Shown piece by piece: positions 37,671-59,012 of a stretch of 64,000 bases of DNA. Both the position numbers and the translations under genes were made by a program. Source of the DNA: Candidatus Levyibacteriota bacterium (lineage in GTDB: Bacteria > Patescibacteriota > Microgenomatia > Levybacterales > UBA12049); contig JACQHJ010000002.1 of NCBI GenBank assembly GCA_016199085.1, forward strand, positions 31,000-94,999, given 5' to 3'. How positions within the stretch are numbered: position 1 is the stretch's first letter; the number at the start of each line of letters is the position of its first letter. A model generated the notes under the pieces. It saw only the letters and a program-made list of their open reading frames with translations. It ran no database searches and was not told the origin of the DNA.

Positions 37671-38048
37671 ATGAAAAAAGTAATAATTATTGATGATGAT
37701 GAGAATATTTTGGAAGCCTTAAAAATATTGCTTGAGCATTTTGGCTTTAAGGCAGAGACTTTGATTAGGGACGGAGAAAGGCTTGCAAAAGCTATTAATA
37801 AACAGATTCCTGACTTAATTATTTTAGACGTTTTACTTTCCGGTGAAGATGGCAGAGTTGTTTGTAAAACATTAAAATCAACAAAGAAAACCAAAGACAT
37901 CCCCGTTATAATGATTTCCGCCCATCCAAACGCAAAACAGAAAGCATTGGAAATGGGAGCGGATGAGTTTATCGCAAAACCTTTTGATGTAGAGCACTTA
38001 TTAGACAAAGTAGAGTACTATACCGAAACAAAGTTAATAAATAATTGA
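37671..38048 (+). CDS. Receiver-only response regulator (CheY-like)
   Basis: 125 aa; IIDDDENILEAL...DLIILDVLL phospho-acceptor Asp context, no output domain; 4 nt after the kinase. Confidence 0.8.
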   Translation: MKKVIIIDDDENILEALKILLEHFGFKAETLIRDGERLAKAINKQIPDLIILDVLLSGEDGRVVCKTLKSTKKTKDIPVIMISAHPNAKQKALEMGADEFIAKPFDVEHLLDKVEYYTETKLINN

Positions 38049-38078
38049 CAAATAAATTTAAAACTGTATCATAAAGGT

Positions 38079-38285
38079 ATGATTGAGCCAAGAGCAGAAG
38101 GATCCAATGTAGTGCCTCTCGACTCACACCCAAGATTTAGAAGACAGGAAATCCCTCACCATCAGCCAGAGCCAGAAGCCCCGCAAAGACGCGGAATAAA
38201 AGCCATATTGGGAAGCTTAGGAAGGAGAGTTTTGGCAAATCTGGATCCCAACACATCTAAAAAGCCTGAAAATTCACCCTTCTAA
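38079..38285 (+). CDS. Hypothetical small protein, compositionally atypical
   Basis: 68-aa Arg/Pro/Glu-rich ORF; weak evidence. Confidence 0.25.
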   Translation: MIEPRAEGSNVVPLDSHPRFRRQEIPHHQPEPEAPQRRGIKAILGSLGRRVLANLDPNTSKKPENSPF

Positions 38286-56554: not shown

Positions 56555-57457
56555 TTATGAGAGATTAACTTCGTTTTCCTCAAGTCCTTTCATAGCAGAA
56601 GTCACCTTATCCAAGTCTCCTTCCATAATAACTTCGAGATTTGAAAAATTTTTGTTAATCCTGTGATCCGTTAGTCTGTCCTGGGGAAAGTTATATGTTC
56701 TAATCTTTTCGCTTCTCATACCTCTTCCAACCTGGGTTGCTTTAAGCCCTGCTATTTCTCCATGTTTCCTTTCAACTTCTTGTTCCCAAAGTTTGGCACG
56801 TAGCATTTCCAAAGCGATTTCTCTGTTTTGAGCCTGGAATCTTTGCGTCTGGCAGGTAACTATAATGCCTGTAGGTTTATGTTTTAGTCTCACTGCTGTT
56901 GATACCTTATTAACATTTTGCCCTCCGTGTCCACCACTTCTGAAAGCCTCAAATTCAACGTCGTCCGGGTTTACATGTAGGTCAATATCTTCAAGCTCGG
57001 GAAGAACTGAAACTGTGGCTGTAGAGGTATGGACTCTGCCTCTTTTTTCGGTTGTTGGAATTCTTTGAACCCTATGGACGCCAGCCTCAAATTTAAAGAG
57101 TTCAAAAGCGCCTTTGCCCGATACTTTAATAATATCGTCGTCTAAAGCCTCCACCTTAAACCCTTTGGTTTGGGAATATCTTGAATACATTCTCAAAAGT
57201 TCCTGACCCCAGTTGGTTGCTTCATCTCCGCCTGCAGCACCACTTGCCTGGATAATAACGTTTCTTTCATTTAAATCTTCACTAGAAGTTTCTTTACTGT
57301 TTGCCTCAAAGGTAGCCAAAATGTCCTGCTTCTGTTTTTCAAGACTTTCTATCTCTTCCTGGGCAAGTATTGACAATGAAGGATCATTTAAAAGAATCTT
57401 TGTTTCTTCAATTTTTCTGTCAATTTGGGCAATTTGTACTTGTCTGTAATCTTCCAT
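56555..57457 (-). CDS. prfA: Peptide chain release factor 1 (short, 300 aa)
   Basis: GGQ motif [14 protein letters not shown] (PxT, RF1-type) tripeptide in [14 protein letters not shown]; no frameshift site. Confidence 0.75.
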
Positions 57458-57472
57458 TGTCAGAAGGTTTAT

Positions 57473-57763
57473 CTATTGAACTTCTAAAAGCATTTCTCGA
57501 AGAGTCTTGGGGGAATTGTCTTTTTTAGCTTCTTTTTTTGCCTTCTTGGTTACATGAAGACTTGCTACTTCCTGTTTTTTCTGGAATTTCTGAATTCTTG
57601 AAGCACTGTCAACAAATCTTTGCTCACCTGTATAGAAGGGGTGGCATTTGCTACAGAGTTCCACATGAATAACTTCAACAGTTGAACCTGTCGTAAACTT
57701 ATTTCCGCATGCACAAATTACCTGCGCGTTCTCAAAATATTGTGGGTGAACTGCAGCTTTCAT
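57473..57763 (-). CDS. rpmE: 50S ribosomal protein L31
   Basis: MKAAVHPQY...CACGN...[10 protein letters not shown] zinc-ribbon L31 signature. Confidence 0.8.
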
Positions 57764-57840
57764 TAAATACAATTATACCTTAATTTGAGGGTATTTACAA
57801 GACAATTATTATAAAACCCACTCGGGTTACTATCCTATAG

Positions 57841-57868
57841 TTGACATATGTGGCAGATTTGATATAAT
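57841..57868 (+). promoter_or_regulatory. Consensus sigma-70-type promoter TTGACA-16 nt-TATAAT
   Basis: TTGACA at 57841-57846, 16-nt spacer, TATAAT at 57863-57868; perfect hexamers in an intergenic region. Confidence 0.55.
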
Positions 57869-57875
57869 CTTTTTT

Positions 57876-58079
57876 ATGAAATTAACAGCTGAGACAAGTG
57901 CAGGCAGAAGCATTCCTCATCCGGCAATAGTTGCCAATGAGACCTATTTAATAAGATTAAATAGTTTATCGCATAGAACACCAGTAAACCCTGCATTAGA
58001 AGTAGAGCAGATGGTTCGTTCTGCTAGGTCAGGAGGACCGGTAGGCCCAACCACGGACGTATTTAAATACACAAGATAA
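57876..58079 (+). CDS. Small ORF (67 aa), compositionally atypical, apparently leaderless; alternatively a small RNA
   Basis: ATG 7 nt after the -10 hexamer, so the predicted TSS coincides with the start codon; no SD; Arg/Pro/Thr-rich. Confidence 0.3.
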   Translation: MKLTAETSAGRSIPHPAIVANETYLIRLNSLSHRTPVNPALEVEQMVRSARSGGPVGPTTDVFKYTR

Positions 58080-58106
58080 ATAATCTACTGTTTCTTCTTT
58101 AATGTC

Positions 58107-59012
58107 CTAATTTAACAGTTTATGCAAGGGGTGATAATGGATTCTTCCTTGGGCAATAAAGATTCCTACAAAGACCAAAAAGGCGCCAATTAAATAGGGG
58201 ACAGTAATGTGTTCATGTAAGAGGTAATAGGCAACGACTATTGTCGCAACAGGATCAATATAACTAAAAATTCCAATTTCCGATGCCTTTATATATTTAA
58301 TTCCGAAAGTGAAAAGAGAATGGGCGATAACGGTCGCAACAACAACGGAAAACAGTAGTCCTAAAATAATCTCGTTGTTTAATTTGCTTATCCACTGCGT
58401 TTGATTTAGGTCTGTCATAAAAAAGGGAATCATAGGTAAAGAACCAATTATGAAAGACCAGAAGGCAATGCTCATCGGGTTATATTTGGGAAGAATCTTC
58501 TTAAGTAAAAGTGCATGGATTACTGAAAAAAATGTTGCAAAAACCAAAAACAAATTGCCTGTAATTGAACCGTCTAAGCCCTCTTTTAAGACAGGTAGTA
58601 AGACAATTGTCATTACACCAAGAAAGCTGACCAATGTTCCCAGGACTACTTTTGTCTTTAGTTTTTCTTTAAGGTAGAAAAAACCTCCGATAATAAGAAA
58701 AATTGGACTTGCAGAAAGAATAATTGGTGCGTTAATACTAGAAGAAAGTTTTAACCCGAAATTTAAAAATGAAATTGTCAAGGTTATTCCAAGTATTGAA
58801 AGTAAAATCAAAGTTACCCCGTCTCTTAACTTAACCTTTAAATCCTTATAGACAAAGGGGAACAAAATTAAAGCGCCCAATAAAAACCGAAGTAGTACAA
58901 AGGTAAAGGGAGGAATAACTTCAAGAGTCAGCTTATAGATAGGAAACGCCGCTCCCCAAATAATATTGGCAAGAATTAAAAAAATAATTGCAAGTTTTGC
59001 TTTAGAGTTCAT
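58107..59012 (-). CDS. EamA-like transporter (DMT superfamily)
   Basis: 10 predicted TM helices in two repeated EamA halves, 301 aa. Confidence 0.65.
   Translation of the reverse strand: MNSKAKLAIIFLILANIIWGAAFPIYKLTLEVIPPFTFVLLRFLLGALILFPFVYKDLKVKLRDGVTLILLSILGITLTISFLNFGLKLSSSINAPIILSASPIFLIIGGFFYLKEKLKTKVVLGTLVSFLGVMTIVLLPVLKEGLDGSITGNLFLVFATFFSVIHALLLKKILPKYNPMSIAFWSFIIGSLPMIPFFMTDLNQTQWISKLNNEIILGLLFSVVVATVIAHSLFTFGIKYIKASEIGIFSYIDPVATIVVAYYLLHEHITVPYLIGAFLVFVGIFIAQGRIHYHPLHKLLN

Follow-up and report, generated by a model that had tools for sequence, protein, structure and literature searches.

Between rpmE, which encodes ribosomal protein L31, and the gene for an EamA-family transporter, in a 64,000-nucleotide (nt) stretch of a Candidatus Levyibacteriota genome that we call the window, there is a gap of 334 nt (57773-58106) that contains a consensus promoter and, behind it, a short open reading frame (ORF) of 67 codons plus a stop. 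The original prediction described these as a perfect sigma-70 promoter that drives either a tiny leaderless gene or a highly expressed small RNA (sRNA). The main parts of the element, all of them on the plus strand, are as follows:

57833-57840, plus strand: octamer TCCTATAG, directly 5' of the -35 hexamer and invariant in the window and in the six relatives with covering upstream DNA.
57841-57846, plus strand: -35 hexamer TTGACA (6/6), from sequence reading and promoter scans; identical in L002, L003, L004, L023, L024 and L026.
57860-57868, plus strand: extended -10 element TGaTATAAT, with TG at 57860-57861 and the hexamer TATAAT (6/6) at 57863-57868.
57876-58079, plus strand: predicted leaderless protein-coding gene of 67 amino acids (aa) plus stop, from the ORF list, homologs, indels, the ratio of nonsynonymous to synonymous substitution rates (dN/dS) and GC content at third codon positions (GC3).
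57915-58013, plus strand: conserved protein core, residues 14-46, from family alignments; consensus PHPRIVANExYLAxPNI..G.P.VNPxRExEQM.

The two hexamers of this promoter match the sigma-70 consensus in full; the spacer between them, at 16 nt, falls within the 16-18 nt range, and the TGn motif is present. An exact consensus had been described as rare, and so it is here: 57841-57868 is the sole 12/12 promoter site that our scan found within the window, and TTGACA-N16-TATAAT occurs once in the 64 kb as against 0.01 copies expected from dinucleotide shuffles, which argues that the promoter is not a chance match. Its conservation was followed in relatives: a scan of a genome collection with the adjacent RF1 protein yielded 21 loci from metagenome-assembled genomes of Candidatus Levyibacteriota/Patescibacteria, with RF1 identities of up to 88%, and contigs that carry additional members of the family (L023, L024 and L026-L029) were examined as well. 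Both hexamers, at 12/12 and with the 16-nt spacer, recur in all six relatives that have the full promoter on their contig (L002, L003, L004, L023, L024 and L026); in L029 the contig is cut inside the promoter spacer, and TATAAT alone is visible. The sequence of the spacer varies among these relatives while both hexamers are invariant, and upstream-bearing relatives carry TAGTATAAT where the window has TGnTATAAT. A further conserved element is the octamer TCCTATAG: in a comparison of the upstream sequences of the same six relatives (four of them aligned), it is unchanged while the spacer and flanks differ. This octamer may be an UP-like element, an extended -35 element, or a binding site for a factor or regulator.

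A discriminator of 7 nt, CTTTTTT, separates TATAAT from the ATG at 57876, and our analysis confirms both the position of this ATG and the 67-aa length of the ORF that it opens. The homologous ORF and the promoter recur together beside rpmE in relatives, whose ATG likewise lies 6-8 nt past the -10 hexamer (window, L002, L003, L004, L023, L024, L026 and L029). In L002, L003 and L004, the 12/12 promoter is located approximately 100 nt from the rpmE start, with the ATG 7-8 nt past the -10 hexamer of an ORF of 63-71 aa that can be aligned to that of the window; L023, L024 and L026-L029 have the same layout, with the ORF divergent from rpmE at 99-100 nt.

Several observations on the homologous DNAs are those of a coding sequence. 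The start codon is ATG in 10/10 homologs, and frame 0 is free of stops in all ten, whereas the other five frames contain 0-11 stops per sequence. When the ten homologs were aligned as DNA with MAFFT, blind to frame, all 18 of 18 internal gap runs (approximately 9 distinct indel events) were multiples of 3. Across the whole ORF, dN/dS is 0.56, from four roughly independent close pairs (Fisher p = 8e-4); for the 34-residue core it falls to 0.44 in close pairs and to 0.17 in distant pairs (p = 2e-6). The composition of the ORF had been called atypical, and this is real at the amino-acid level: the product is basic and Pro-rich. At the DNA level, the GC content of the ORF is 0.42 as compared with 0.37 for the window, and its GC3 of 0.29 is that of the neighbouring genes (0.29-0.33); we therefore attribute the atypical composition to a basic, Pro-rich protein and rule out a foreign origin for the ORF.

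The same amino-acid conservation is also found in a different transcript context, which is hard to explain if the conserved entity were an RNA element: L030 and L031 carry the homolog as a second cistron, whose ATG is 1 nt past the stop of a 95-aa ORF that is itself apparently leaderless, an arrangement that suggests translational coupling. This 95-aa ORF (L030 1146-1650; also in L031) is placed behind a second perfect promoter, TTGACA-N16-(TG)ATATAAT, and it resembles by eye, unaligned, an 88-aa ORF in L006 (3376-3642, minus strand) with which it shares an HIPDE..L..F motif.

The layout of the 67-aa ORF also has a genome-wide context. For 68 long, non-overlapping ORFs of the window, we tallied the -10-like hexamers that precede the first ATG by their distance from it; in 19 of the 68, such a hexamer ends 6-8 nt before that ATG. 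The counts form a sharp peak at 6 nt (12 ORFs), with 4 at 7 nt and 3 at 8 nt, over a background of about 1 per position. This pattern indicates that an ATG 7 nt past the -10 hexamer is a normal design for a gene start here and not an oddity; as judged from these distances, a leaderless start is the default layout for the first genes of transcription units in this Levyibacteriota genome. Examples of the layout are ssb (ATG 47668), rpmE (ATG 57763, minus strand), a 472-aa ORF (ATG 6026) and several enzymes. Full-text literature searches found no report of leaderless mRNAs in Patescibacteria. Elsewhere in the window, at 38045-38285, a leaderless-type 68-aa ORF rich in Arg, Pro and Glu (38079-38285) begins 6 nt past a near-consensus promoter (TTGACA-N16-TATCAT, 11/12) and looks like a similar small 'atypical' gene.

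Three things are supported directly by the data: the promoter is present and conserved, the ORF is present and evolves in the manner of a coding sequence, and no RNA structure is conserved (see below). From these we conclude, with a probability of about 0.82, that the perfect, conserved promoter drives a small, fast-evolving, leaderless protein-coding gene rather than an sRNA. We propose that the sigma-70-type promoter would place the first nucleotide of the transcript on the A of ATG 57876 or on the nucleotide before it, to give an mRNA that would have neither a 5' untranslated region nor a Shine-Dalgarno site; translation would then be of the leaderless kind, where a 5'-terminal AUG is bound directly by the ribosome together with the initiator tRNA. 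The interval 57833-58079 would in that event be a compact, self-contained gene. Of the two possibilities raised by the original prediction, it is the tiny leaderless gene that emerges from the conserved ORF, the in-frame indels, a dN/dS below 1, the conserved distance of the ATG from a conserved promoter, and the frequency of leaderless-type starts around it.

A number of points weigh against this conclusion. Where transcription starts, how strong it is and whether the mRNA is translated without a leader are all inferred from the DNA sequence. Constraint on the protein appears weak for a genuine gene: the C-terminal third is near neutral by dN/dS, values within the L002/L026/L029 subclade are approximately 0.8-1.1, and variability is near-flat across the three codon positions (0.255, 0.235 and 0.299). 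Three residues that are well conserved in the family are replaced in the window copy (R17A, P28L and R41L), and the ORF is followed by no terminator. A family ORF that is otherwise intact, in L032, has lost its -10 box to a 13-nt deletion; the missing DNA (at L032 256-300) covers the -10 box and the short discriminator, and the ATG now overlaps a 'TATGAA' at the -10 position. This deletion could reflect promoter decay, use of an alternative promoter, or an assembly error. Furthermore, AlphaFold2 models of the product are of low confidence (pLDDT 57 and 62; pTM 0.20-0.24), and the product has no match to a characterised protein in Pfam, NCBIfam, PHROGs, PADLOC, a PDB profile search, or Foldseek against PDB.

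The window protein is hydrophilic and has an isoelectric point (pI) of 10.0; family members are of 58-71 aa, hydrophilic and strongly basic (pI 9.7-11.8). All share the same arrangement: a variable N-terminal tail, the conserved 34-residue core, and a near-neutrally evolving basic C-terminal tail that frequently ends in RRF or RRV. AlphaFold2, run with 9-row and with 16-row alignments, places helices at residues 16-31 and 39-51 in both cases, and the core is accordingly modelled as two predicted short helices with a Pro-rich linking loop. The best PDB profile match, to gp41 constructs (E = 0.018), is spurious, and the best Foldseek match in PDB has E = 9. From its size, charge, low predicted order and very strong promoter, the likeliest class for the product would be that of a nucleic-acid-binding or ribosome-associated micro-protein, a suggestion that we make tentatively and consider to be doubtful on balance.

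This is a clade-restricted orphan family, and in relatives its members are already called by gene finders under the label 'hypothetical protein'. Among 5.8 billion proteins, a profile search recovered 8 clusters at 90% identity, of 63-71 aa throughout and all lacking a Pfam domain; one of the 8 already carries that label. A HMMER search of 1.84 billion representative proteins gave 13 matches, the best nine of which are of 58-71 aa; the remaining four comprise a 114-aa protein that shares the N-terminal motif only and three weak matches to long repeat or eukaryote-like proteins (P0017, P0019 and P0020). We consider the latter three to be chance or low-complexity matches, P0017 and P0020 being repeat proteins. 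An exact-sequence look-up of the 67-aa window protein returned no database record. With the window's intergenic DNA alone as query, nhmmer gave only a faint signal for the homologs (E from 1.9e-12 to 0.017), and it took protein comparisons to make the homology clear.

The gene is present in 7/7 family-bearing loci with a comparable EamA (69.6-83.4% identical to that of the window), and absent from loci in which EamA identity is 65% or lower. It is single-copy, with no paralogs in the window or in the other loci, and a search of the DNA of outgroup loci detected no remnants of the gene, which would have borne on a de novo origin. Family proteins are 24-60% identical to the window protein, except for the near-identical P0003, whereas EamA is 70-83% identical across the same span; the small protein therefore evolves faster than its neighbours.

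As to the flanks, rpmE is on the minus strand (ORF end 57772, true ATG 57763) with prfA next to it, and the EamA gene has hisS beyond it. The original prediction had the intergenic region around the 67-aa ORF running convergently into the EamA gene, and this is borne out: the EamA stop is at 58107, 27 nt past that of the ORF. Two further features belong to these flanks:

57761-57800, minus strand: leaderless-type, divergent promoter of rpmE-prfA, with -35 TTGTAA (57800-57795), a 17-nt spacer, -10 TATAAT (57777-57772), then 8 nt to the ATG at 57763.
58080-58106, plus strand: spacer of 27 nt between the stop of the 67-aa ORF and that of EamA, from the terminator scan (fold z = +0.18).

The rpmE-prfA promoter and the perfect promoter are thus back-to-back, with 40 nt between their -35 hexamers, and both are kept in relatives. 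The gene order hisS-EamA-[gap]-rpmE-prfA is common to the relatives, while the gap itself is variable: it spans 34-145 nt in more distant relatives, 334 nt in the window, and 1-1.8 kb in the closest relatives, which have extra genes in it. A gap of 34-145 nt leaves no room for the promoter-ORF element. We describe the interval as a variable island (1-2.6 kb in close relatives), with the coordinates 57773-58106 in the window, 2147-3694 in L002, 2621-3688 in L004, 1923-3697 in L006, 3901-5990 in L023 and 64-2690 in L030. In close relatives it contains an alanine racemase gene, or sets of orphan ORFs (of 226-229, 243, 285, 120, 99 and 85 aa, together with a zf-UBP protein). The orphan ORFs have no match in Pfam, NCBIfam or PADLOC, and the neighbourhood gave no lead to the function of the 67-aa protein, since its neighbours in the rpmE-EamA island are orphans without a family match and its downstream partner is not conserved.

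Two side observations concern the release factor with which the 21 loci were collected. In the window, the gene for RF1 (56555-57457, minus strand) encodes only 300 aa; the protein aligns to RF1 models from approximately position 46-55, the N-terminal part being missing, and it scores below the NCBIfam RF1 cut-off (324 as against 400 bits). Also, the records for L002, L003, L005, L006 and L012-L018 are titled 'uncultured Gammaproteobacteria bacterium', a label that looks wrong: their RF1 is 60-88% identical to that of Levyibacteriota/Patescibacteria genomes, and they share the rpmE-prfA order where flanks are present, mostly with hisS and/or EamA upstream.

Other Levyibacteriota lineages also have a promoter at the same rpmE-side position, with an 11/12 match (L008 and L020) or a 10/12 match (L009), before unrelated leaderless-type ORFs: an MFS transporter in L009, and orphans of 75 and 140 aa in L008 and L020. 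These promoters allow a wider reading, in which the rpmE-divergent promoter would be a conserved 'launch pad' in Levyibacteriota, behind which different clades have placed or evolved different leaderless ORFs: the 60-71 aa family, the 88-95 aa family, the 75- and 140-aa orphans, and the MFS transporter. Different ORFs could occupy one site because the lineage would translate any AUG-initial transcript. The present family would then be a young, clade-restricted and abundant basic micro-protein that has acquired a function, for example as an accessory protein that binds the ribosome or the nucleoid in a reduced-ribosome lineage. If this is true, the family would offer a traceable example of how leaderless translation enables recent gene birth or rapid turnover. 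We regard this extension as unlikely.

Quite unlikely, in our estimation, is a dual-function transcript, whereby the mRNA of the small protein would also extend, as antisense RNA, over the 3'-terminal part of the convergent gene (in the window, EamA) and lower its expression. Strong convergent transcription is generally disruptive to the gene that it opposes. In the window, the two stop codons are just 27 nt apart, and in L003, L023, L024 and L029 the ORF has a 4-nt overlap with a convergent gene. Moreover, our scan found no terminator-like site in 57869-58150, and the 3' region folds at z = +0.18; with no intrinsic terminator detected, transcripts may extend antisense into EamA. On the other hand, the convergent partner varies: the window and L032 have EamA in this place, L002 and L026-L028 have alanine racemase, and L003, L023, L024 and L029 have an orphan of 226-229 aa, while L004 and L030 have a same-strand gene downstream instead. 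With a partner that is not conserved, there is no conserved antisense target.

The other possibility in the original prediction, a structured non-coding sRNA of approximately 200-230 nt in which the ORF is incidental, is very improbable. A very strong promoter, a short region of intergenic appearance, the absence of a Pfam family and the near-equal conservation across codon positions would all suit an sRNA, and the window region folds slightly better than shuffles (z = -1.95 on the plus strand, -1.86 on the minus strand), a difference that is not convincingly better than chance. Against this, five of eight homologs fold no better than their shuffles (z from -1.44 to +0.55), and none has z < -1.9. 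The secondary-structure and covariation analysis across homologs that had been proposed as a check gave 4 pairs in RNAalifold (-1.84 kcal/mol) and no compensatory changes; the structure conservation index is 0.04 on the plus strand and 0.14 on the minus strand, and the minimum free energy (MFE) structure of the window is paired in only 54% of cells across homologs. With RNAalifold, MFE pair counting, per-sequence z and, on both strands, the structure conservation index all negative, we reject a novel conserved sRNA. A known RNA fares no better: Rfam gave no match at E <= 1 over 57000-59000, and ARAGORN found no tRNA or tmRNA. On these results we reject signal recognition particle RNA, 6S RNA, RNase P and tmRNA, which we had at first suspected from a GGUCAGG-like stretch and the strong promoter. 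The lack of a terminator downstream is a further argument against an sRNA, and an incidental ORF would not be expected to stay open in ten diverged copies with indels only of 3n, to have a core dN/dS of 0.17-0.44, or to abut the stop of an upstream cistron as in L030 and L031. The entire 64-kb window is without a tRNA or tmRNA gene or an Rfam match at gathering score.

The several stable hairpins that had been noted in the gap are part of this evidence. One of them is indeed present in the window:

57916-57941, plus strand: hairpin CTCATCCGGCAATAGTTGCCAATGAG, which lies within the codons of the conserved stretch PHPAIVANE and has an inner stem (GGCAA/TTGCC) that the window alone possesses.

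Its pairs 48-52/56-60 are kept in one or two of eight sequences, with the exception of one A-U pair, and the hairpin is not a conserved RNA element. What stands of that description is the existence of the hairpin; with a regional z of about -1.9 and lineage-specific stems, the importance given to stable hairpins finds no support.

Finally, it is highly improbable that the ORF is a decaying or non-functional one that is translated merely because AUG-initial transcripts are pervasively translated behind a strong divergent rpmE-side promoter, with the window copy drifting: the near-neutral subclade and C-terminal third, the three conserved residues lost from the window copy, the -10 box lost from L032, and the unrelated ORFs that follow the 11/12 and 10/12 promoters of L008, L020 and L009 are what such decay might leave, but no sampled member of the clade, across an EamA span of 70-83% identity, is without the gene, the core of the protein is under significant purifying selection, and the perfect promoter is itself conserved.

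By itself, a short orphan gene of the leaderless small-protein type is ordinary. Its value is as a clean, conserved example of the leaderless layout as the standard gene start in a candidate phyla radiation genome, and that layout has consequences for how gene starts and small genes are called in metagenome-assembled genomes of this kind; the apparent dominance of leaderless gene starts in this genome is the more noteworthy by-product of the analysis. A perfect, conserved promoter before a 67-aa basic protein also suggests that few small proteins of these uncultured cells may be made in larger amounts than this product. It is a reasonable target for metaproteomics, with the predicted tryptic peptides SIPHPAIVANETYLIR, TPVNPALEVEQMVR and SGGPVGPTTDVFK, and it bears on lineage-specific micro-proteins in reduced-ribosome organisms.

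Among known systems, dual-function sRNAs with small ORFs (SgrS/SgrT, RNAIII/hld and SR1/SR1P) share with the window unit a short and, here by prediction, strongly transcribed unit, an intergenic gap and a small ORF; those sRNAs have conserved base-pairing or structured domains and terminators, whereas the window unit has neither conserved structure nor terminator. A second comparison is with bS22, bL37, bTHX and Sra, very small, basic, ribosome-associated proteins (approximately 25-70 aa, high pI) that are lineage-restricted. The 67-aa protein resembles them in size, high pI, low predicted order and lineage restriction, and its gene is beside a ribosomal gene, rpmE; however, it has no similarity to ribosomal or other families in Pfam, NCBIfam or PDB, and the likeness is one of general character. 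The textbook leaderless mRNA is that of phage lambda cI transcribed from PRM, which starts at the A of the AUG and is translated independently of a Shine-Dalgarno site. Here, in contrast, we have a chromosomal gene at a conserved syntenic position and not a phage repressor, and there is no sequence similarity between the two.

The closest parallel is to the leaderless, first-in-operon genes of the 'group C' genomes defined with GeneMarkS-2, which are mostly Actinobacteria (Mycobacterium tuberculosis, for example) and Deinococcus-Thermus (PMC6028130). As in those, the Pribnow box precedes an AUG start codon by 6-8 nt, an interval that cannot accommodate a Shine-Dalgarno site, and many transcription units share the arrangement; the host in the present case differs in that it is an AT-rich (37% GC) Patescibacteria/Levyibacteriota genome. 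Within the window, the other leaderless-type promoters with a 5/6-6/6 match at the -10 box match the -35 consensus at only 2-5 of 6 positions, as against the perfect -35 hexamer of the promoter before the 67-aa gene.

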